The notes beneath the pieces were generated by a model. That model ran no database searches. It was not told the DNA's origin and was given only the letters and a program-made list of their open reading frames with translations. Below, piece by piece: positions 6,449 through 26,800 of a stretch of DNA of 35,190 nucleotides. The stretch spans positions 1 to 35,190 of the forward strand of contig JBBSNO010000002.1 in NCBI GenBank assembly GCA_038232615.1, written 5' to 3'. A program made the translations under genes and the position numbers. This DNA is from Actinomycetales bacterium. GTDB lineage: Bacteria; Actinomycetota; Actinomycetes; Actinomycetales; DASROP01. The stretch's first letter is position 1. Each line of letters starts with the position of its first letter.

Positions 6449-7269
6449 GCCACCACCTAGTCGTCCACATCGACGACCCCGCGGACCGGCGAGTCCACGA
6501 GTACACCGGCCTGACCGACGTCTCCCTGCGCCGGCGCCGCGAGCCGGCCGAAGGGCTTTACATCGCCGAGTCGAGCAAGGTGATCCGCCGCGCCCTGGGT
6601 GCGGGCCACCGTCCCCGGTCGTTCCTGATGGCGCCGCGCTGGCTCGAGGAGGGCCCCGACCTGCTGGCCGCGGCCGTGTCGGCCGACGTGCCGGTCTACC
6701 TGGGGTCCTCCGACGTGCTGCGCGTCATCACCGGGTTCCAGCTGCACCGTGGTGCCCTCGCCGCCATGCACCGGCCGGTGCTGCCCTCGGTCGCGCAGGT
6801 CGTGCGCGGCGCGCGCCGTGTCGCCGTCCTGGAGGACGTGGTCGACCACACGAACCTCGGGGCCGTGTTCCGCGCCGCCGCCGCGATGGGTGTCGACGCG
6901 GTGCTGGTGACACCACGCTCCGCCGATCCCCTGTACCGCCGCTCGGTGCGCGTTTCCATGGGCACCGTGTTCCAGGTGCCGTGGACGCGCCTGGAGACGT
7001 GGCCGCAGGGGCTGGTCGACCTGCAGGCACAGGGTTTCGTCGTCGCCGCGCTCGCGCTGACCGACGACGCCGTGAGCCTCGACGACTTCGCGCTCGACCT
7101 TCCCGACAAGCTCGTGATCATGCTCGGCACCGAGGGCGACGGGCTCTCGCGCGAGTCGGTGACCGTCGCGGACGTCGTGGTGCGGATCCCGATGTCCGGC
7201 GGCGTCGACTCCCTCAACGTGGCCTCCGCCTCCGCCGTCGCCTTCTGGGCCACGCGACTCCGTCGCTGA
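6445..7269 (+). CDS. TrmH/SpoU family RNA 2'-O-methyltransferase
   Basis: SpoU motifs are present: VDHTNLGAVFRAAAAMGVD, LGTEGDGLS and IPMSGGVDSLNVASASAVAFW. The GTG start overlaps the TauE stop (GTGA at 6445-6448). Confidence 0.9.
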   Translation: MSHHLVVHIDDPADRRVHEYTGLTDVSLRRRREPAEGLYIAESSKVIRRALGAGHRPRSFLMAPRWLEEGPDLLAAAVSADVPVYLGSSDVLRVITGFQLHRGALAAMHRPVLPSVAQVVRGARRVAVLEDVVDHTNLGAVFRAAAAMGVDAVLVTPRSADPLYRRSVRVSMGTVFQVPWTRLETWPQGLVDLQAQGFVVAALALTDDAVSLDDFALDLPDKLVIMLGTEGDGLSRESVTVADVVVRIPMSGGVDSLNVASASAVAFWATRLRR

Positions 7270-7274
7270 CCCGG

Positions 7275-7343
7275 GGTGATCAAGGACCCCGCGCCCCCGC
7301 GGTGATCAAGGAATTCGTGTGGAAGATCGTGACCGGATCGTGA
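7275..7343 (+). repeat. two GGTGATCAAGGA units plus GATCGTGA(CCGG) repeats; same family as the 22659-22810 array
   Basis: GGTGATCAAGGA occurs at 7275-7286 and 7301-7312. GATCGTGA occurs at 7325-7332 and 7336-7343. There are four GATC sites within about 62 bp, and the region is locally AT-richer than its flanks. Confidence 0.8.
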
Positions 7344-7410: not shown

Positions 7411-8991
7411 ATGGCAACTGGTTCGGACGTCGACCCGCAGCACGATCTGCTGCGGGGCGTGGCGCTGGCCGTTCAGGGACTGAGCCTGGTCAACGAGGCG
7501 GCGTGCTGGTCGCTGTCGGACGCGCAGGCCCGCGCCGCGCTCAGCGAGGTCACCCGGTTGCAGGCCGTGGTGCGAGCCGCCTACCTGAAGCTGCTGGCCG
7601 AGTCGGCGAACCGCGACGTTCCCCGCCGCCGGGGGTGCACGGCCACCGGCGCGGACGGTGCCACGACCGACGACGCGGACGACGTCACGGGCGGCGGCCT
7701 CGTGCCGGCGGTGGCGGAGACGTGCGCGTGGCTGGCCGACCAGCACCGTCTGTCGGCTGCGCGGGTCCGTTCGGACCTCCGCGCTGCCCGGGTCCTGGAC
7801 CCGGTCGGCGGTGACCTGGCCTCCCTGGGTCGTGAGCTGACCGCGGGGCGGATCACGCCCGAGCACGCCGGGATCGGGGTCCGGGCCCTGGCCCAGATCC
7901 CGGTCAAGACCCGGCTCGAGCTGCGTGACCGTATCGACACCACGTTGACGGGCAACGCGAGAGACTTCGCCCCGCCGGCGATGGAGATCCTGGCCCGGCA
8001 CCTGCTGGACACCATCGAACCGGACCGGGCCAGGCACTTCGACGCCCTGGCCGACCAGCGCCGCGAGGTCTACGTCGCGACCGACTCCACCGGGATGCTG
8101 ATCATTCGTGGACAGCTCGAACCCGCCGGCGGGGCAGGGTTCAAGGGCATGCTCGACCATCTCTCCGCGCCCCACCGCGGGCCTGCCGACACCTATGGCA
8201 ACGGTGGGGGCGGGACCGGGCAGACCGAGATCACCGTCAACGACCTGCGCACCCCCGGCCAGCGCCGCCACGATGCGCTGATCGAGATGGTGCGCCTGGC
8301 ATCGGGGAACCTGGGCGCCGGAGTTCGCGCCGGGGAACCCGCCCGCGTCGTCGTGCACACCGACACGTACCAGCTCGCCGCCATCACCGCCGGCGACGGC
8401 ACCGCCTTCGGCAGACCCGACGAGGACCCGCAGGAGCCGAACGGGTCGTGCGAGCTACCCGGGGCACTGCCACCCGCAGCGACGCTGGCGCCGGGGTCGG
8501 CGACCTGCGAGCAGACCGGCCCGATCAGCCACGCCACCCTCGGGCGGCTGGCCTGCGACGCGATCATCGACCGGATCCTGCTCGACCCGAACGGCACGGT
8601 CCTGCAGATGCAGACCCTCGGACGGCTTTTCACCGCAGCCCAACGACGCGCCCTCGGCGCCCGCGACGGAGGGTGCGCCTTCCCAGGCTGCGACCGGCCC
8701 CCGAGCTGGTGCGACGCGCACCACATCATCTTCTGGTCGAACGGCGGCCCCACCACCGTCGCCAACGGGGTCCTGCTGTGCGGTCCGCACCACACCACGA
8801 TCCACCTCGGCCACTGGGCGATCGTGATGCGAGACGGCCTGCCCTGGTTCGTCCCCCCAGCACACCTGGACCCCGGCCGGACACCCCTGCGCAACACCCT
8901 CCGCGAAGCCATCGCCCGAACCCGCAAGCACGGACAGCAGCTCGCCCTCCGCCTCCAGCGTGGCGGCGTGCCGCCGCCCGACACCAGCTGA
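7411..8991 (+). CDS. DUF222 domain / HNH endonuclease (REP13E12-type)
   Basis: C-terminal CAFPGCDRPPSWCDAHHIIFWSNGGPTTVANGVLLCGPHHTTIH is the HNH signature. The long N-terminal region is typical of the actinobacterial DUF222 family. Confidence 0.9.
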   Translation: MATGSDVDPQHDLLRGVALAVQGLSLVNEAACWSLSDAQARAALSEVTRLQAVVRAAYLKLLAESANRDVPRRRGCTATGADGATTDDADDVTGGGLVPAVAETCAWLADQHRLSAARVRSDLRAARVLDPVGGDLASLGRELTAGRITPEHAGIGVRALAQIPVKTRLELRDRIDTTLTGNARDFAPPAMEILARHLLDTIEPDRARHFDALADQRREVYVATDSTGMLIIRGQLEPAGGAGFKGMLDHLSAPHRGPADTYGNGGGGTGQTEITVNDLRTPGQRRHDALIEMVRLASGNLGAGVRAGEPARVVVHTDTYQLAAITAGDGTAFGRPDEDPQEPNGSCELPGALPPAATLAPGSATCEQTGPISHATLGRLACDAIIDRILLDPNGTVLQMQTLGRLFTAAQRRALGARDGGCAFPGCDRPPSWCDAHHIIFWSNGGPTTVANGVLLCGPHHTTIHLGHWAIVMRDGLPWFVPPAHLDPGRTPLRNTLREAIARTRKHGQQLALRLQRGGVPPPDTS

Positions 8992-11130: not shown

Positions 11131-11463
11131 ATGCAGAAGACCTCTCTCACCGCGCTGGTCCGCCAGCACCTGGAGACCGCAGCGCAGGCGTCGAGCGGGC
11201 GCAGTGCACACACGGTCTTCGGCGGCCACGAGCACGTCCTGCGACAGACCTTGATCGCACTGACGGCGGGACAGAGCCTGGCCGAGCACGAGAACCCCGG
11301 CGAGGCCACGCTCCAGGTGCTGCGCGGACGGGTACGCCTCGTCACGGACGACACCTCGTGGGACGGCGTCGCCGGGGACCACCTCGTGATCCCGGACAGC
11401 CGCCACAGCCTGGAGGCGCTGGAGGACTCGGCGGTGCTCCTGACCGTGGCCAAGATCGGCTAG
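11131..11463 (+). CDS. cupin domain-containing protein
   Basis: The 110-aa protein contains LAEHENPGEATLQVLRGRVRL...GDHLVIPDSRHSLEA, i.e. cupin motifs 1 and 2. GACACT-N7-ATG lies upstream. Confidence 0.8.
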   Translation: MQKTSLTALVRQHLETAAQASSGRSAHTVFGGHEHVLRQTLIALTAGQSLAEHENPGEATLQVLRGRVRLVTDDTSWDGVAGDHLVIPDSRHSLEALEDSAVLLTVAKIG

Positions 11464-11729: not shown

Positions 11730-13079
11730 ATGACGCCGACACCCCAGGCCCCCACAGGTTCGAGCCCGGCGGACGGCGGCGCGTCGCGCGCCGAGACAGA
11801 GGTCGTGGACCTCTGCCGTGATCTGCTGCGGATCGACACGTCCAACTACGGCGACGGTTCCGGGCCGGGGGAGCGCCAGGCCGCCGAGCACGTCATGGGG
11901 CTGCTCGACGAGGTGGGGTTGACCGGTGAGCTCGTCGAGAGCGACCCGGGCCGCGCGAGCGTCGTCCTGCGGGTGGAGGGCGAGGACCCCGGCCGCGACG
12001 CCCTGCTCGTGCACGGGCACCTCGACGTCGTCCCGGCCCAGGCCTCCGACTGGCAGGTCGACCCCTTCGCAGGCGAGGAGCTCGACGGGTGCCTGTGGGG
12101 TCGCGGCGCCGTGGACATGAAGGGCATGGACGCGATGATGCTCGCCGTCCTGCGCGACATGACCCGCGCGGGACGCAAGCCCCCGCGCGACGTCGTGTTC
12201 GCGTTCCTCGCCGACGAGGAGGCGGGTGGCCTCAAGGGCGGGCACCACCTCGTCGAGCACCGCAAGGACCTGTTCGAGGGTGTGAGCGAGGCCATCAGCG
12301 AGGTCGGGGGGTTCTCGATCGACGTCGAAGGCCAGCGCTGCTACCTGCTCCAGACCGCGGAGAAGGGCATCCAGTGGCTGCGCCTGGTGGCCCACGGCAG
12401 GGCCGGCCACGGCAGCCAGGTGGGTACCGACAACGCCGTCACCCGGCTGTGCGAGGCGGTCGCGCGCATCGGCCGCTACGAGTGGCCGGTCGAGGTCACC
12501 CCCGCCGTCGGTGAGTTCCTGGACGGCGTCAGCGAGATCATCGGCCGGCCGCTCGACCCGAACGACCCGGAGCAGCTCACGCAGGTGCTGGGGACGACCG
12601 CTCGCTGGGTCGGCGCGACGCTGCAGAACACCAGCAACCCGACCCTGCTCGACGCCGGCTACAAGCACAACGTCATCCCGGGGACGGCGACCGCCCTGGT
12701 CGACACGCGCTTCCTGTACGGCCAGGAGGATCAGCTCCTGGACACGGTCCGTGAGCTGGCGGGTGAGCGGGTCGACGTGGAGGTGCTGCACCGCGACGTC
12801 GCCCTGCAGACCGACATGCAGGGCGCGCTGCCGGACGCGATGGTGGCTGCCCTGCTGGCGGAGGACCCCGGCGCGAAGGTGCTGCCCTACTGCCTCTCGG
12901 GCGGGACGGACAACAAGTCGTTCAGCCGGCTCGGCATCCGCGGGTTCGGGTTCGCCCCGCTGCAGCTGCCCGCCGGCCTCGACTTCGCCGGCATGTTTCA
13001 CGGGATCGACGAGCGGGTCCCCACCGACGCCCTGCAGTTCGGCACCCGTGTCCTGGACCGGCTGCTGCGAACCTGCTGA
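11730..13079 (+). CDS. M20/M25/M40 family metallopeptidase (DapE/ArgE-like dipeptidase)
   Basis: LLVHGHLDVVPA (metal-binding HxD), FLADEEAGG (catalytic/metal EE) and a dimerisation-domain-sized insert are present. Start set at ATG 11730; the in-frame GTG 11721 overlaps the -10 box. Confidence 0.9.
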   Translation: MTPTPQAPTGSSPADGGASRAETEVVDLCRDLLRIDTSNYGDGSGPGERQAAEHVMGLLDEVGLTGELVESDPGRASVVLRVEGEDPGRDALLVHGHLDVVPAQASDWQVDPFAGEELDGCLWGRGAVDMKGMDAMMLAVLRDMTRAGRKPPRDVVFAFLADEEAGGLKGGHHLVEHRKDLFEGVSEAISEVGGFSIDVEGQRCYLLQTAEKGIQWLRLVAHGRAGHGSQVGTDNAVTRLCEAVARIGRYEWPVEVTPAVGEFLDGVSEIIGRPLDPNDPEQLTQVLGTTARWVGATLQNTSNPTLLDAGYKHNVIPGTATALVDTRFLYGQEDQLLDTVRELAGERVDVEVLHRDVALQTDMQGALPDAMVAALLAEDPGAKVLPYCLSGGTDNKSFSRLGIRGFGFAPLQLPAGLDFAGMFHGIDERVPTDALQFGTRVLDRLLRTC

Positions 13080-14184: not shown

Positions 14185-14610
14185 ATGACCACCCATCCGC
14201 GCGCCGCGCTCGACCGGCTGGTCGCCGCCCTGGAGTCCCACCTCACGGCGTCGGAGAACCGGCGCAGTGAGCGGGACCCCGCGGTCGAGGGTGCCTACCG
14301 GACGCTGGCGGACGCCTTCGAGACCTACGACGACGCGCTCTACGACGCGCACGGCGAGGTGACGCCGTTCGAGCTGTACGACGACCAGGAGGACGAGCGC
14401 GAGGACTCCGAGGACGACGACGCGGACGACGACTCCGATGACGAGGCGGACGACTCGGACGGCGAGGGCCGGCGCAGCGGGGCCGTGGCGGACGTCGACG
14501 ACCTCAGCGACGTGGAGGGCGACCACGACGACGAGGCGGCCGACCTGGGCCCCGACGACGACTACGAGTTCGAGCCCCGGCGGTCGTCGGAGACGTCGTC
14601 CAGGGCCTGA
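14185..14610 (+). CDS. hypothetical protein with helical N-terminal half and extremely acidic Asp/Glu-rich C-terminal half
   Basis: MTTHPRAALDRLVAALESHL...ELYDDQEDEREDSEDDDADDDSDDEADDSDGEG...; GC3 is high. This is the only plausible coding part of the 493-aa ORF-track entry 13129-14610. Confidence 0.7.
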   Translation: MTTHPRAALDRLVAALESHLTASENRRSERDPAVEGAYRTLADAFETYDDALYDAHGEVTPFELYDDQEDEREDSEDDDADDDSDDEADDSDGEGRRSGAVADVDDLSDVEGDHDDEAADLGPDDDYEFEPRRSSETSSRA

Positions 14611-18474: not shown

Positions 18475-18498
18475 CTCGCCGTCCGCCGCGGCCGCGCG

Positions 18499-18578
18499 CA
18501 GGGCTCCCACCGCGTAGGGCTCCCACCGCGCAGGGCTCCCACCGCGCAGGGCGACCGCGGCGCAGGGCGACCGCGGCG
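18499..18578. repeat. five contiguous 16-bp tandem repeats (3 x [C/T]AGGGCTCCCACCGCG, 2 x CAGGGCGACCGCGGCG)
   Basis: Unit starts at 18499, 18515, 18531, 18547 and 18563. The array lies in the 135-bp gap between divergent corA and the histidine phosphatase gene. 16 is not a multiple of 3. Confidence 0.9.
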
Positions 18579-21366: not shown

Positions 21367-22614
21367 GTGATTGCCTGGCCCGCCCCCGAGGTCCCGCGGC
21401 TCCCGGGACGGGGACTGCCGGTCCGCCTGCACGACACCGCCACCGGCGAGCTGCGAGCGACTTCCCCCGGCCCGGTGGCAGGGCTGTACGTCTGCGGCAT
21501 CACCCCCTACGACGCCACGCATATGGGTCACGCGGCGACCTACCTGGCCTTCGACCTGCTCCAGCGCGCCTGGGTGGACGCCGGCCACGAGGTCCGTTAC
21601 GTGCAGAACGTCACCGACGTCGACGACCCGCTGCTGGAGCGGGCGACGGCGACGGGCATCGACTGGCGCGACCTCGCGGCCCGCGAGAGCGCCTTGTACG
21701 GCGAGGACATGGCGGCACTGGCGGTGCTGCCCCCGCAGGTGTACCTCGGCGCCACCGAGACCATCGGCCTCGTCGTCGACGCCGTCACGGCGCTGCTGGA
21801 CGCCGGCGCGGCCTACCGCGTCCGCGGCGACGGCCAGCCGGACGGCGACGTCTACTTCGACGTCACCAGCGACACGCTCTTCGGGGGCGTCGCGAACCTG
21901 GGCGCCGACCGGATGCGGGCGCTGTTCACCGAGCGCGGAGGGGATCCGGACCGCGCCGGCAAGCGGAACCCCCTCGACGCCCTGATGTGGCGGGTGGAGC
22001 GGCCCGGGGAACCGTCGTGGGACGGCGGCGCTCTCGGCGCGGGCCGCCCGGGCTGGCACATCGAGTGCGTCGCCATCGCCCGCGAGCACCTGCCGCGGCC
22101 CTTCGACGTGCAGGGCGGCGGGTCGGACCTCGCCTTCCCGCACCACGAGATGGGGGCGTCCCACGCGCACGTCCTCGAAGGCGCGGCGCCCTACGCCCGC
22201 ACCTACGCCCACGCCGGCATGGTGGGCCTGGACGGCGAGAAGATGAGCAAGTCCAAGGGGAACCTGGTGCTGGTCTCACGGCTGCGCGCCGACGGGGTCG
22301 ACCCGATGGCGATCCGTCTGGCGCTGCTCGCGCACCACTACCGCGACGACTGGTCGTGGACGGCGCAGGGGCTGGCGGACGCGGAGCAGCGCCTGCACCG
22401 GTGGCGCGACGCGGTGTCGCGCAACGGGGGCCCGGACGCGGCGGCCGCCCTGTCCGGCGTCCGCGAGCGGCTGGCCGACGACCTCGACGCACCCGGCGCC
22501 CTCGACGCCGTCGACCGCTGGGCGCACGAGCAGGCCACCAGCGGCGGGGACGTCGAGGGCGCACCGGGCGTCGTCTCCCGGGCCGTCAGCGCCCTGCTCG
22601 GTGTCCGCCTGTAG
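21367..22614 (+). CDS. mshC: cysteine--1-D-myo-inosityl 2-amino-2-deoxy-alpha-D-glucopyranoside ligase (mycothiol ligase)
   Basis: The protein is CysRS-like but short (415 aa). It has [17 protein letters not shown] (HIGH-type), GWHIEC and EKMSKSKGN (KMSKS). The context is as in mycobacteria. Confidence 0.92.
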
Positions 22615-22658
22615 ACCCCTGTCCACTGGTGGGGACCGGGCCGCCCAGGCGCTGCCAT

Positions 22659-22810
22659 GTCACGAGTTCCTTGATCGCGGGGGGAGGCGTCTCCCCGAGC
22701 CGATCAAGGAACTCCCCGTCGGTGATCAAGGAACTCGCTGCTGGTGATCAAGGAACTCCCCGTCGGTGATCAAGGAACTCCCCGTCGGTGATCAAGGAAC
22801 TCGTGACCGG
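22659..22810. repeat. 22-bp-phased array: one inverted plus five direct GATCAAGGAACTC units, bounded by an 18-bp perfect inverted repeat
   Basis: Direct units start at 22702, 22724, 22746, 22768 and 22790. The inverted unit is at 22664-22676. The inverted repeat is GTCACGAGTTCCTTGATC (22659-22676) / GATCAAGGAACTCGTGAC (22790-22807). An inner hairpin GGGGAG-GCGT-CTCCCC lies at 22681-22696. Confidence 0.93.
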
Positions 22811-22818
22811 TCAGCCGG

Positions 22819-23685
22819 TCAGCCGGTGGGGCGCTGGTGCCCTCCGTCGCCGCGGCGGCGCAGGTAGCGCTCGAACTCGCGGGCGATCGCCTCGCCGGAG
22901 GCCTCGGGCAGGTCGGTGGTGTCCTTGGCCTGCTCGAGCTGGCGCACGTACTCGCCGATCTCCTCGTCCTCGCCGGCGAGCTCGTCAACACCGTGCTCCC
23001 AGGCCTCCGCCTCCGCGGTGAGGTCCTCCAGCGGGACGGGGACCTCGAGCAGGTCCTCGACCCGGCCCAGCAGCGCGAGCACCGCCTTCGGTGAGGGGGA
23101 CTGACCCACGTAGTGCGGGACCGCCGCCCACAGCGACAGCGCGGGCAGGCCGGAGCGGGTGGCCGCCTCCTGCAGCACGCCGAGGATCCCGGTCGGACCC
23201 TCGTAGCGCGACTGCTCCAGCGCGAGGCGGGTCAGCAGCTCGGAGTCGTCGGTCGTGGAGGAGATCGGGATCGGACGCGTGTGCGGGACGTCGGCCAGCA
23301 GGGCTCCGAGGGTGACCAGCGTGGCCGCGCCGAGCCTCGTAGCGTGCCCGAGGACCTCCTCGGTGTAGGTGCGCCAGCGCATGGACGGTTCGATCCCGCG
23401 GACGAGGACGACGTCGCGGCGCGAGCCCGGTGGGCTCGCCCAGCTGATGCGCGTGGTGGGCCACGTGATGCGCCGCCGCCCGTCGTCGGTGAAGTTGACG
23501 ACCGGACGGTTCACCTGGAAGTCGTGGTAGAGCTCGGGGTCGAGGGCGACGAGCGGCTGCCCGCCCCACACCCGGTCCAGGTGGGCCACGGCGCCGCTCG
23601 CGGCCTCGCCCGCGTCGTTCCACCCCTCGAACGCGGCCAGGACGACCGGGTCCCGCAGCGTGGGTACCGCCGACAGCTCGCTCAC
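22819..23685 (-). CDS. PAC2 (proteasome assembly chaperone 2-like) family protein
   Basis: PVVLAAFEGWNDAGEAAS...VLVRGIEPSMRWR...GPTGILGVL...LWAAVPHYV matches the actinobacterial PAC2 family. An SD sequence GAGGAGG lies before GTG 23685. Confidence 0.87.
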   Translation of the reverse strand: MSELSAVPTLRDPVVLAAFEGWNDAGEAASGAVAHLDRVWGGQPLVALDPELYHDFQVNRPVVNFTDDGRRRITWPTTRISWASPPGSRRDVVLVRGIEPSMRWRTYTEEVLGHATRLGAATLVTLGALLADVPHTRPIPISSTTDDSELLTRLALEQSRYEGPTGILGVLQEAATRSGLPALSLWAAVPHYVGQSPSPKAVLALLGRVEDLLEVPVPLEDLTAEAEAWEHGVDELAGEDEEIGEYVRQLEQAKDTTDLPEASGEAIAREFERYLRRRGDGGHQRPTG

Positions 23686-23775
23686 CAGACCTCCTCGTGC
23701 GTTCTGCGCAGGCGACCGCCTGCCGACGCCGACCCAGCCTACGGTCGGGCGGCGGAGCGGACCGGACCGGACGCC

Positions 23776-23781
23776 TAGACT
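23776..23781 (+). promoter_or_regulatory. possible -10 box TAGACT for metH (would give a roughly 73-nt leader)
   Basis: This is the only TANNNT box in the PAC2-metH gap in suitable orientation. It is followed by two small GC hairpins. Confidence 0.25.
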
Positions 23782-23861
23782 CGCCGCGCGCATCCGCGCG
23801 CAACCCCTGTGGCGCCAGCGTGCGCCGACACCGTTCCCCGACCCGCGAAGGCGACACCTCG

Positions 23862-26800
23862 ATGAGCAGCCGCTCGATGAGCACCGGCACCGCAGACCAC
23901 GGGTCCGCACCGAACTCCCAGACTTCGCCGGACCCCCAGGCCGCGCCGGACTTCCTGACGGCACTGACCTCCCGCGTCCTGGTCGCCGACGGCGCGATGG
24001 GCACCATGCTGCAGGACGCCGACCCGTCCCTGGCCGACTTCGAGGGCCACGAGGGCTGCAACGAGATTCTCAACGTCACCCGCCCGGACGTCGTGGAGTC
24101 CGTGCACGCCGCGTACCTCGACGTGGGCGTCGACTGCATCGAGACGAACACGTTCGGTGCGAACCTGCCGAACCTCGGCGAGTACGGGATCAGCGACCGC
24201 ATCCACGAGCTGGCCCTGGCCGGCGCGCAGATCGCCCGGCGCGCGGCGGACGCCGCCTCGACGCCGGGCCACGAACGGTGGGTGCTCGGCTCGATGGGCC
24301 CCGGTACCAAGCTGCCGAGCCTGGGCCACGCGCCGTACTCCGCGCTGCGGGACGCCTACGCCGAGCAGGTCAGGGGACTGCTCGAGGGCGGCACCGACGC
24401 GCTGCTCGTCGAGACCAGCCAGGACCTGCTGCAGGCCAAGGCCGCGGTCGTCGGCGCGCAGCGCGCGATGACGGCAGCCGGCCAGCAGGTCCCCGTCATC
24501 GTCCAGGTCACGGTCGAGACGACCGGGACTATGCTGCTGGGCAGCGAGATCGGCGCGGCCCTGACGGCGTTGGAGGCCCTGGGCATCGACGCCATCGGGC
24601 TCAACTGCGCCACCGGACCGACGGAGATGAGCGAGCACCTGCGGCACCTGTCGCGGCACGCACGCGTGCCGGTGACGGCGATGCCCAACGCCGGCCTGCC
24701 CCAGCTCGCCAAGGGCGGCGCGTACTACCCGCTGACGCCGTCCGAGCTCGCCGACGCCCACGACGCGTTCACGTCCGAGTTCGGGCTGTCGCTCGTCGGC
24801 GGATGCTGCGGGACGACGCCCGAACACCTGCGGCAGGTCGTCGACCGCGTCCGTGGACGCGCGCTCGCCCCCCGGCGTCCACGCCCGGAGCCCGGGGTCG
24901 CGAGCCTCTACTCGCACGTCCCGTTCCAGCAGGACGCGAGCTTCCTCTCGATCGGCGAGCGCACCAACGCGAACGGGTCGAAGGCGTTCAAGGAGGCCAT
25001 GCTCGCCGCCGACTGGGAGGCGGTCGTCGAGATCGCCCGCGACCAGACCCGTGACGGGGCCCACCTGCTCGACGTCTGCATCGACTACGTCGGCCGCGAC
25101 GGCGTCGAGGACATCAAGGCCGTCGTCGGGCGGCTCTCGACGAGCTCGACCCTCCCGCTCGTCATCGACTCGACCGAGCCGGCCGTCATCGAGGCGGGAC
25201 TCGAGCTCGTCGGCGGTCGCAGCGTCGTCAACTCGGTGAACTACGAGGACGGCACGGGACCCGAGAGCCGCTTCCACCGCACCATGACGACGGTGCGCGA
25301 GCACGGTGCGGCCGTGGTCGTGATGGCCATCGACGAGCAGGGGCAAGCCCGCACGTGCGACCACAAGGTGGCGATCGCGTCGCGGCTGATCGACGACCTC
25401 GTCCGCGACTGGGGGATGCGTGTCGAGGACATCATCATGGACACCCTCACGTTCCCGATCGCGACCGGGCAGGAGGAGACGCGCCGCGACGGGCTCGAGA
25501 CGCTGAACGCGATCCGCGCGCTCAAGGAGCGCTACCCGCAGGTGCAGACGACGCTCGGGGTCTCCAACGTCTCGTTCGGCCTCAACCCCGCCGCACGCGT
25601 CGTCCTGAACTCGGTCTTCCTGCACGAGGCCGTCAAGGCGGGCCTCGACTCGGCGATCGTGCACGCCGCGCGCATCGTCCCGGTCGCGAAGGTCCCCGAC
25701 GACCAGCGGCAGGTGGCGCTCGACCTCGTCTACGACCGGCGCAGGTACGACGACGCCGGCAACCTGACGTACGACCCGCTCTCGGCGCTGCTCGACATGT
25801 TCGAGGGCGTAGACGCTGCCTCGGTGCGCGCCGACCGGGCCGCCGAGCTCGCGTCGCTACCGCTGGGGGAGAGGCTGTCGCGCCGCATCATCGACGGTGA
25901 GCGCCAGGGCCTCGAGGGTGACCTCGACCTTGCGCTCGCGGCGGGGGAGAGCCCGCTGGACATCATCAACGACCGCCTGCTCGAGGGCATGCGCGTGGTG
26001 GGCGAGCTCTTCGGCCGGGGGGAGATGCAGCTGCCCTTCGTGCTGCAGTCGGCCGAGGTGATGAAGGCTGCCGTCGCGTACCTGGAGCCCCACATCGAGG
26101 CCATGCTGGACGGCGGCGACCGCCAGGCCAAGGCCAAAATCGTGCTGGCCACGGTGAAGGGCGACGTCCACGACATCGGCAAGAACCTGGTCGACATCAT
26201 CCTGTCCAACAACGGGTACGACGTCGTCAACATCGGCATCAAGCAGCCGATCAGCGAGATCCTGCGGGCGGCCGACGAGCACGACGCCGACGCGATCGGT
26301 ATGAGCGGGCTGCTCGTGAAGTCGACGGTCGTGATGAAGGAGAACCTGGAGGAGATCAACTCCCGGGGCATGTCGGCGCGGTTCCCGGTGCTGCTCGGCG
26401 GCGCCGCGCTCACCCGGGCCTACGTCGAGAACGACCTGGCGGAGGTCTACGAGGGCGAGGTCCGCTACGCCCGGGACGCCTTCGAGGGGCTGCGCCTGAT
26501 GGACGCGGTGGCCAAAGCCCGCACGTCACCCGGCGCCGGCCTGAAGGAGCACCTCCCGGCGCTACGCCCCCGACGTGTCCGCAAGGTAGCCACCCCGGAG
26601 GTCGTCGAACCGGACGCGCAGACAGTGCGCTCGGACGTCGCCCACGACGTCGACGTGCCCACGCCGCCGTTCTGGGGGGACCGCATCGTCAAGGGCCTGG
26701 CGCTGAAGGACTACGTCACCTACCTCGACGAGCGGGCCACGTTCCTCGGCCAGTGGGGCCTGAAGCCGACTCGCGGCGCGTCGGGCCCGGGCTACGACGA

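Follow-up and report, generated by a model that had tools for sequence, protein, structure and literature searches.

A tandem array between mshC and a PAC2-family gene and its relatives among intergenic repeats of high-GC Actinomycetota

RESULTS

The gap between mshC and a PAC2-family gene

We describe a short tandem array in a 35,190-nucleotide stretch of DNA from an Actinomycetales bacterium (GenBank assembly GCA_038232615.1, contig JBBSNO010000002.1, positions 1 to 35,190; hereafter the window), together with the intergenic motif from which its units are built. The array lies between the converging ends of mshC and a gene of the PAC2 family. An earlier note on this DNA had proposed both genes, with their stops at 22614 and 22819, and profile matches supported them. 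The mshC open reading frame (ORF) matched the MshC equivalog TIGR03447 with 641.8 bits against a cut-off of 485.1. The coordinates of the PAC2 gene are those of the longest ORF, and its homologues are ~290-300 amino acids long. The gap and its borders contain the following features.

21367..22614 (+): mshC, cysteine ligase of mycothiol synthesis; stop codon TAG at 22612-22614
22659..22676 (-): inverted unit, core GATCAAGGAACTC (22664-22676) plus GTGAC; left arm of an 18-bp perfect inverted repeat
22681..22696: small hairpin GGGGAG-GCGT-CTCCCC, in which the G-rich tail of the inverted unit pairs with the C-rich leader of the direct array
22699..22807 (+): direct array of five 22-bp units, each made up of (G)GTGATCAAGGAACTC and a spacer; cores from 22702, 22724, 22746, 22768 and 22790
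22807..22827: CCGGTCAG in 2.6 copies, an 8-bp tandem duplication spanning the point where the array meets the PAC2 stop codon (TCA, 22819-22821)
22819..23964 (-): PAC2-family gene (E = 5.8e-61), converging on mshC

An exact-match search confirmed five identical copies of GATCAAGGAACTC at 22-bp steps and one inverted copy, all at the positions previously reported. The last direct unit ends in GTGAC, which gives the right arm of the inverted repeat (22790-22807), and comparison of the outer copies showed 22659-22676 to be the exact reverse complement of this arm, GTCACGAGTTCCTTGATC; the small hairpin was also found where the note had placed it. When up to two mismatches were allowed, GATCAAGGAACTC had 8 matches in the window, compared with 0.36 expected from shuffled sequences, none of which reached 8. 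Tandem Repeats Finder ranked the array first in the window (22702-22802, period 22, 4.6 copies, score 174). The 13-nt cores are all identical, and the spacers differ at 4-5 positions, being CCCCGTCGGT in three units, CGCTGCTGGT in one and CGTGACCGGT in the last; the spacers of units 2 and 5 have diverged with their cores intact. The window is a single metagenome contig, and the copy number of five is read from that one assembly.

The earlier note had also described the array as noncoding, not a promoter, AT-richer than its surroundings and closed to translation in six frames, and our results agree. Plus-strand TGA triplets at 22672, 22723, 22745, 22767 and 22789, and also at 22804, cover three frames, as do the minus-strand TCAs. 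The GC content is 60% in 22659-22807 and 65% in the whole gap, compared with 74-77% in the flanking coding sequence and 72.5% in the window. A scan of 22300-23100 revealed neither a canonical terminator (a GC-rich hairpin with a U-tract) nor a sigma-70 promoter. The interval 22659-22807 is flanked by GCCAT (left) and CGGTC (right), which form no direct repeat, so there is no target-site duplication around the array. The predicted fold of the same interval has a free energy of -72.2 kcal/mol (z = -4.5).

Each unit includes GGTGATCAAGGA (22721-22732 in the window). Rotating AAGGAGGTGATC, which is perfectly complementary to the 16S rRNA 3' tail GAUCACCUCCUU, gives exactly this sequence. This remark of the earlier note is correct to the letter. 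In a tandem array, the AAGGA of one unit and the GGUGAUC of the next could pair with the 16S tail if the spacer looped out.

The motif recurs past stop codons in intergenic DNA

The core of the family, (c)GGTGATCAAGGAAyyC, recurs in intergenic DNA only. In ~100 kb of the window's own lineage (the window and the loci that we number L118, L119, L120 and L376), GATCAAGGA was present in 16 copies grouped into 8 clusters, all of them intergenic, against a chance expectation of ~0.2 copies from base composition. Four of these sites lie within 18 kb in L376, which comes from the same sample as L119. Among the matches listed outside this lineage, Actinotalea lenta (Cellulomonadaceae, L084) has two direct and two inverted copies after uppS, at the uppS-phoH locus (L084:4012-4170), and the core is also carried by three loci from metagenome-assembled genomes (L005, L024 and L108). 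About 10 distinct contigs from high-GC metagenomes are further carriers (L260, L268, L269, L276, L277/L287, L293, L326, L362 and L370). The earlier note had considered that the motif might be confined to the array and to a site at 7275, without conservation; instead, two related lineages have it in the orthologous gap, and it occurs in further genomes.

The genes next to the clusters (mshC, PAC2, metH, uppS, phoH, purD and other housekeeping genes) show no shared feature. The distribution of the motif is patchy: it is present in a Kineosporiales-like lineage and in a Cellulomonadaceae species and is missing from 105 kb of nearer relatives. Two contigs, L375 and L293, end inside the motif, which is a sign of high copy number, as when a repeat breaks an assembly.

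Most of the matches listed in a genome scan with the 16-mer were coding, GTGATCAAGGAAYTC being translated as Val-Ile-Lys-Glu-Leu/Phe. Approximately 14 of the 120 loci returned by a metagenome scan were relevant; the remainder were mostly low-GC repeats with periods that are multiples of 3, which look like collagen-like coding sequences in which GGTGATCAAGGA would read Gly-Asp-Gln-Gly. An exact 9-nt search would miss degenerate copies, and the family may therefore be denser than counted. A possible degenerate copy, TGA-CCC-GTGATCAAG-CGG, occupies a 7-bp convergent gap between peptidase M28 and DUF5703 genes (L120:2096-2115).

The earlier note knew of no described element with this sequence, and neither did the resources that we searched. 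Rfam at gathering and permissive thresholds gave a tRNA and noise, blastn against phage and plasmid records gave nothing relevant, and scans of viral contigs for inverted pairs, direct pairs and DUF222 relatives gave chance or coding matches only. A literature search by sequence returned primers only, and the REP surveys and DUF222 papers do not contain this family.

In an alignment of 52 copies, positions -3 to +9 (GGT-GATCAAGGA-A) were near-invariant, and position +12 was a C in 40 of the 52. A C-rich stretch preceded the core at -15 to -4, beyond which no conservation was seen. A full unit comprises a C-rich leader of ~8-25 nt, the core and, often, a following GTGACC. The placement of these units is narrow. 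An upstream gene could be called for 14 cluster sides, and on 13 of these the first copy in sense lay 8-31 nt past a same-strand TGA or overlapped it, and 10 of 11 independent clusters were in the sense orientation relative to the upstream gene. At least 6 C were found among the first 10 nt after 11 of the 12 motif-bearing stops. The corresponding figure was 21 of 123 when every strictly called gene end in the related loci was counted, including three with the motif; we thus rejected the idea that the C-rich tract is general to gene ends of the clade. The TGA of the motif was also considered as an in-frame back-up stop for the upstream gene and was dismissed, as the in-frame cases number 5 of 12, about what chance would give. 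Nor are stops in three frames a design of the family, because arrays with an 18-bp period hold all of their TGAs in one frame.

Facing pairs and direct arrays

Clusters of the motif take two forms. In convergent gaps, two facing units make up a long and very stable predicted hairpin; in other gaps, 2-5 units are repeated directly in tandem. Inverted or mixed-orientation clusters were found in L119, L120, L108, L268, L269, L084 and the window. The predicted hairpins of L119 (-61.7 kcal/mol, z = -8.4) and L120 (-74.3 kcal/mol, z = -9.3) take both stop codons into the stem, and comparable stability was obtained for L108 (z = -7.7) and L268 (-98.2 kcal/mol, z = -14.4).

The periods across the family were 18, 18, 18, 18/19, 22, 22, 23, 26, 30, 32, 32, 34, 36 and 42 bp. 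Outside the window, a 22-bp period occurs only in L268 and in part of L260, where the spacers are unrelated to one another. The earlier note had proposed that the strict 22-bp phasing puts all units on one face of the helix, as in iteron-like arrays. The comparison did not support this proposal: with family periods of 18-42 bp, the phasing in the window is local and reflects no helical-phasing design, and the inverted pair is the commoner form. One convergent gap (L370:20-150) contains five direct units with an 18/19-bp period, and around this array the gene ends GGCGCTGAGCC and GGCTCAGGCGCC, both stop codons included, pair with each other.

The same gap in relatives and a probable history of the array

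The window's MshC was found on no other contig. The nearest MshC proteins, 81-83% identical, come from uncultured Actinomycetota, and the closest named species is Thalassiella azotivora (Kineosporiales) at 77%. Gene order around mshC was kept in every relative that we fetched. In L119 and L120/L121, whose MshC proteins are 81-83% identical to that of the window, the gap holds two facing units: it measures 73 bp in L119 and reads TGA-CCCCCCACCTCTCCCG-CGATCAAGGAACTCC-loop-GGAGTTCCTTGATCG-CGGGGAGGGG-TCA, and it measures 96 bp in L120/L121, with facing units TGTTGATCAAGGACTTCATGC. The 30-bp gap of L118 has only CCCGCGATC left, and the mshC/PAC2 gaps of Thalassiella (L122), L371, L372 and L374 showed no trace of the motif. 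The window, L118, L119 and L120 are roughly equidistant, with 79-87% nucleotide identity in the gene ends. Since the 9-nt core is kept in both arms among lineages so spaced while loops and flanks differ, its conservation is not neutral.

The left copy of the window array, together with its G-rich tail GAGTTCCTTGATCGCGGGGGGAGG, matches the right hairpin arm of L119, GAGTTCCTTGATCGCGGGGAGGGG, which abuts the PAC2 stop. If the left copy corresponds to that PAC2-side arm, then the five-unit block (~22692-22818) sits between an ancestral arm and the PAC2 stop, and the 18-bp inverted repeat that appears to close the array is formed by the old arm and the last of the new units. We infer that the window retained the PAC2-side arm of an ancestral hairpin (22659-22690), lost the mshC-side arm and gained the five-unit block, which now separates the retained arm from the PAC2 stop. 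The simplest route would be the insertion or duplication of one unit followed by slipped-strand copying of 22 bp, and the 22-bp phasing appears to be a side effect of copying a single 22-bp unit here. At the same PAC2 gene end, L119 has a single copy of TCAGCCGGTGGGG / TCAGCCGG, from which it follows that 8 bp, including the stop codon, were apparently duplicated in the window (22807-22827).

Other repeats stand at the same gene ends in two further relatives. L373 (MshC 71% identical) has CGCAGATCGTGGCCGATCTGCG units after the PAC2 and mshC stops: at 11263-11284, 11326 (-) and 12297-12422, three 42-bp units, each with a hairpin CGCAGAT(C/A)GTGGCCGATCTGCG, stand behind a TGA and a C-rich tract, and more units come after the mshC stop. 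In L374 (MshC 70% identical), a cluster of GTTAAC-centered near-palindromes lies downstream of PAC2 at 12179-12256, the best of them being CCTCGTTAACGAGG; they form a loopless 39-nt inverted repeat with 87% complementarity. Different repeats at the same gene ends amount to lineage-specific families, which are typical of REP-like elements.

A DUF222-HNH gene next to the core

The window contains a second cluster of the motif, upstream of a DUF222-HNH gene of the REP13E12 type.

7270..7320 (+): second cluster; the TGA of a SpoU-type methylase gene (7267-7269) is followed by CCCGGG and then by the cores GGTGATCAAGGAC (7275) and GGTGATCAAGGAATTCGTG (7301)
7411-8991 (+): DUF222-HNH gene, with a conserved leader from ATCGTGACC at 7326, 13 nt past the core at 7304-7312

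The two copies of GGTGATCAAGGA in this cluster are direct and 26 bp apart, and the DUF222-HNH gene is located between the SpoU-type methylase gene and a convergent methyltransferase gene. A homologue with 62% identity occupies a different chromosomal site in L376 (10001-11425). At both loci, the C-rich stretch and the core are followed by exactly 13 nonconserved nucleotides and then by the leader ATCGTGACC(G/T)GATCGTGATG..CGCAACGGTT. A third homologue (L377, 59% identical) lacks the motif as well as that part of the leader. The core is therefore found at a fixed 5' offset in two of the three DUF222-HNH loci and on the 3' side in none, in a sample of three loci only. A 99%-identical copy of the window's DUF222-HNH gene (L375:1-1755) lies on a 2.9-kb contig of a different assembly (GCA_002900785.1, PPFU01231318) that starts inside the core (CAAGGAATTCGTG...). 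The gene in L376 might appear to be flanked on both sides by inverted copies; this was rejected because the right-hand copies belong to the purD gap ~700 bp away.

Other repeats in the window

The genes of the window are ordinary chromosomal genes, with no transposase and no RAYT (Y1/HUH) gene among them. Another tandem array, CGCGCAGGGCTCCCAC with a period of 16 bp and 4.6 copies followed by CGCGCAGGGCGACCGCGG-type units, is present at 18495-18568. Judging from the positions of Pfam domains, it seems to lie within the divergent gap between CorA (-) and histidine-phosphatase (+) genes, a gap of only ~40 bp in L118, L119 and L120. Overlapping GAC/GAG-rich tandem repeats of 12, 15 and 21 bp are found at 14378-14546, beside an aldo-keto reductase gene. 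The relatives have at the counterpart position a small gene without a Pfam match, which also contains GAC/GAG-rich repeats and would encode an Asp/Glu-rich protein.

DISCUSSION

On balance, we lean toward reading the array as one locally expanded locus of a dispersed, stop-codon-anchored extragenic repeat family, comparable to REP, BIME and TRIT elements, in a clade of high-GC Actinomycetota. The family is apparently undescribed. Under this reading, both convergent transcripts would end in a strong stem (predicted at about -72 kcal/mol here) with several alternative registers. If REP/BIME and TRIT elements are a guide, this stem would impede read-through and 3' exonucleases. The core is invariant whether paired or unpaired and the spacers are free to vary, which points to a sequence-specific trans-acting factor. 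Candidates for such a factor are a DNA-binding protein, a mobility-linked nuclease and an RNA partner.

Several observations weigh against this interpretation. The core GGTGATCAAGGAAC is not self-complementary, so that a unit alone is no palindrome. The earlier note suggested that the single inverted copy could pair with any of the direct copies; this is plausible at the mshC/PAC2 locus, but the direct-only arrays elsewhere fold no better than shuffled sequences (z = +0.8 and +1.1), and a hairpin therefore cannot be the common function. The window array itself breaks the orientation rule, as both genes meet antisense copies first, and a single core (CCCCGCGATCAAGGAACTCCC, - strand; 4913) lies in a divergent promoter gap between MarR-family and B12-dependent mutase genes (L376:4905-4925). 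The array has no U-tract and no canonical terminator, and no cognate enzyme or binding protein was identified among the genes at the clusters. The search patterns required GGTGATCAAGGA, which biased the sampling of other loci, and the counts come from sampled loci and contigs rather than from whole genomes. Finally, in Term-seq data from M. tuberculosis, each class of predicted terminator, TRIT included, was found on only 2-4% of mapped 3' ends (bioRxiv 10.1101/2022.06.01.494293); with so few 3' ends explained by TRIT, the analogy does not establish termination.

Comparison with known systems clarifies where the family resembles REP-like elements and where it departs from them. The REP, BIME and REPIN elements of Proteobacteria, such as E. 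coli REPs and Pseudomonas REPINs, are likewise short, multicopy extragenic units at gene 3' ends and in convergent gaps, with hairpin-forming inverted doublets, mixed-orientation clusters, one sequence family per lineage and proposed roles at mRNA 3' ends. In E. coli, REPs near a stop codon are reported to affect translation of the upstream gene. The REP unit is an imperfect palindrome, whereas the unit described here is not. Our family frequently arranges its units as direct arrays in tandem (periods of 18-42 bp), and the element includes a C-rich leader and has a fixed orientation, in the sense direction, past the stop; no RAYT gene was seen in the window, and the hosts are Actinomycetota. 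Because the unit is nonpalindromic and no RAYT gene was seen, we do not file the element as a REP. Of two REP surveys, one includes neither actinobacterial genera nor this family, and the other merely tabulates three Actinomycetota genomes (PMC3733652, PMC12306157).

The second comparison is with TRIT, the "Tuberculosis Rho-independent terminator", a palindromic, bidirectional element conserved in sequence and structure and present in 147 copies in M. tuberculosis (Gardner et al. 2011, PMC3152330). Its position is narrow and reaches into the gene end, with the start centered at about -8 from the stop, and its authors suspected an unknown binding factor (PMC3152330). The inverted pairs of our family (z = -7.7 to -14.4) are also actinobacterial, conserved, bidirectional and narrowly placed at stops. 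However, their cores lie 8-31 nt past the stop rather than at about -8, direct-repeat arrays have not been described for TRIT, and the carriers are Kineosporiales-like bacteria and Cellulomonadaceae. TRIT is reported only from Mycobacterium and was compared by its description only; the element is therefore not filed as a TRIT.

Some of the same evidence can be read as DNA binding. The units would then be binding sites of a chromosomal protein on adjacent cores, either iteron-like or as an RNA polymerase roadblock in the style of stoperators, with five units forming a strong multisite version and the hairpin potential being incidental; we give this a fairly low probability. The invariance of the core amid free spacers and arrangements, the direct-only arrays without RNA structure and the bias of 10 in 11 clusters, which a polar roadblock would also show, speak for it, as does the resemblance to the L5 stoperators, the gp71 sites of cluster A mycobacteriophages. 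These are many copies of an asymmetric 13-bp site, GGTGGMTGTCAAG, bound by a known phage repressor, and they too occupy short gaps by stop or start codons in one orientation relative to transcription. But stoperators belong to a phage, are single sites without arrays or hairpins and share only GGTG...TCAAG with our core, and searches of phage records and viral contigs brought up no similar site. Neither the leader rich in C nor the fixed spacing from the stop is accounted for by DNA binding alone. Helical phasing is not constant (periods of 18-42 bp), and no DNA-binding gene is linked to the clusters, whose neighbors are unrelated housekeeping genes. The differences from iterons and phased binding arrays are of the same kind, namely, inconstant spacing and the lack of an adjacent initiator or binding-protein gene or replication origin; iterons of plasmids or integrative and conjugative elements were dismissed for want of a rep gene. 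CRISPR was likewise dismissed, as the units are too short, the spacers are near-identical within the array and there are no cas genes.

A more mobile history would tie the repeat to the DUF222-HNH genes. The core would be the site or insertion target of the nuclease, or the 5' end of an element whose gene-less clusters resemble miniature inverted-repeat transposable elements (MITEs), and the array would be a pile-up of ends or targets. We regard this as rather unlikely. It draws on two genes at different sites with the core at the identical 13-nt offset, the presence of GTGACC after the core in copies without a gene as well (window 22803, L268, L260 and L269), the patchy distribution described above, the perfect 18-bp terminal inverted repeats of the window element and the variable arrangement at the orthologous gap, with L118 lacking the motif. 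Against these stand the small number of supporting loci (two, the third, L377, being without the motif), the one-sidedness of the motif, the end of homology between elements at the stop codon, the lack of a target-site duplication around 22659-22807 and the lack of a nearby DUF222 gene at most clusters. A rule of distance from the stop codon would be odd for random insertion, and neither transposition nor the spread of short repeats by HNH proteins is an established mechanism. The window array also recalls MITEs and the ends of Tn7- or Mu-type elements in its terminal inverted repeats and in having one repeat facing five 22-bp repeats. In contrast to these, it has neither a target-site duplication nor a transposase in the window, the period is inconstant across the family and the orientation of units to the element ends is reversed in L268, L119 and L120; Tn7- or Mu-like ends were rejected on the first two grounds. 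REP13E12 of M. tuberculosis is itself a gene-carrying repeat of ~1.4 kb, compared with the motif of 13-16 nt here, and we know of no short companion repeat described for it; the likeness is that a gene of this family adjoins the repeat at a fixed offset in the window and L376. That the core is the DNA site of REP13E12-type DUF222-HNH proteins, in an HNH-based repeat/nuclease partnership comparable to REP/RAYT, is an idea to which we give little weight. Were it true, it would explain the invariance of the core across genera, the patchiness and the 13-nt offset in two genomes, and it would provide a function for the long-unexplained REP13E12 family, known since the first genome analysis of M. 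tuberculosis.

Two further explanations seem much less probable. The core could act as an RNA decoy, in which GGUGAUC and AAGGA pair with the 16S rRNA 3' tail and hold the 30S subunit after termination, or CAAGGA titrates a CsrA-like protein in the manner of a CsrB/RsmZ-type sponge. The rotation of the anti-16S sequence, the sense orientation immediately past stop codons and spacings of at least 18 nt, which suit dual-site binding by CsrA, are compatible with this proposal. Yet the common inverted-pair form buries the core in a perfect stem, the copies first reached by both window transcripts are antisense, more of the unit is conserved than the parts that complement 16S rRNA and the rotation was spotted after the fact; we consider a decoy very unlikely. 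Least credible of all is that the array is a recent product of local slippage or an assembly artifact, lacking both function and relatives. Such an origin would fit the identity of three of the five 22-mers and the single metagenome contig, but the core recurs in separately assembled sequences, at the orthologous gap in relatives and in further genera, and the diverged spacers of units 2 and 5 accompany intact cores.

Extragenic repeats are well studied in Proteobacteria and hardly at all in Actinomycetota, where TRIT is the only comparable case and is itself unexplained. Compared with TRIT, the family described here offers a sharper handle: a core of 13-16 nt that is identical across orders, a strict position and orientation after stop codons and at least one cultured carrier, Actinotalea lenta. 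The question of what reads such motifs thereby becomes directly testable. For annotation, such elements break metagenome assemblies and can pass for regulatory arrays.

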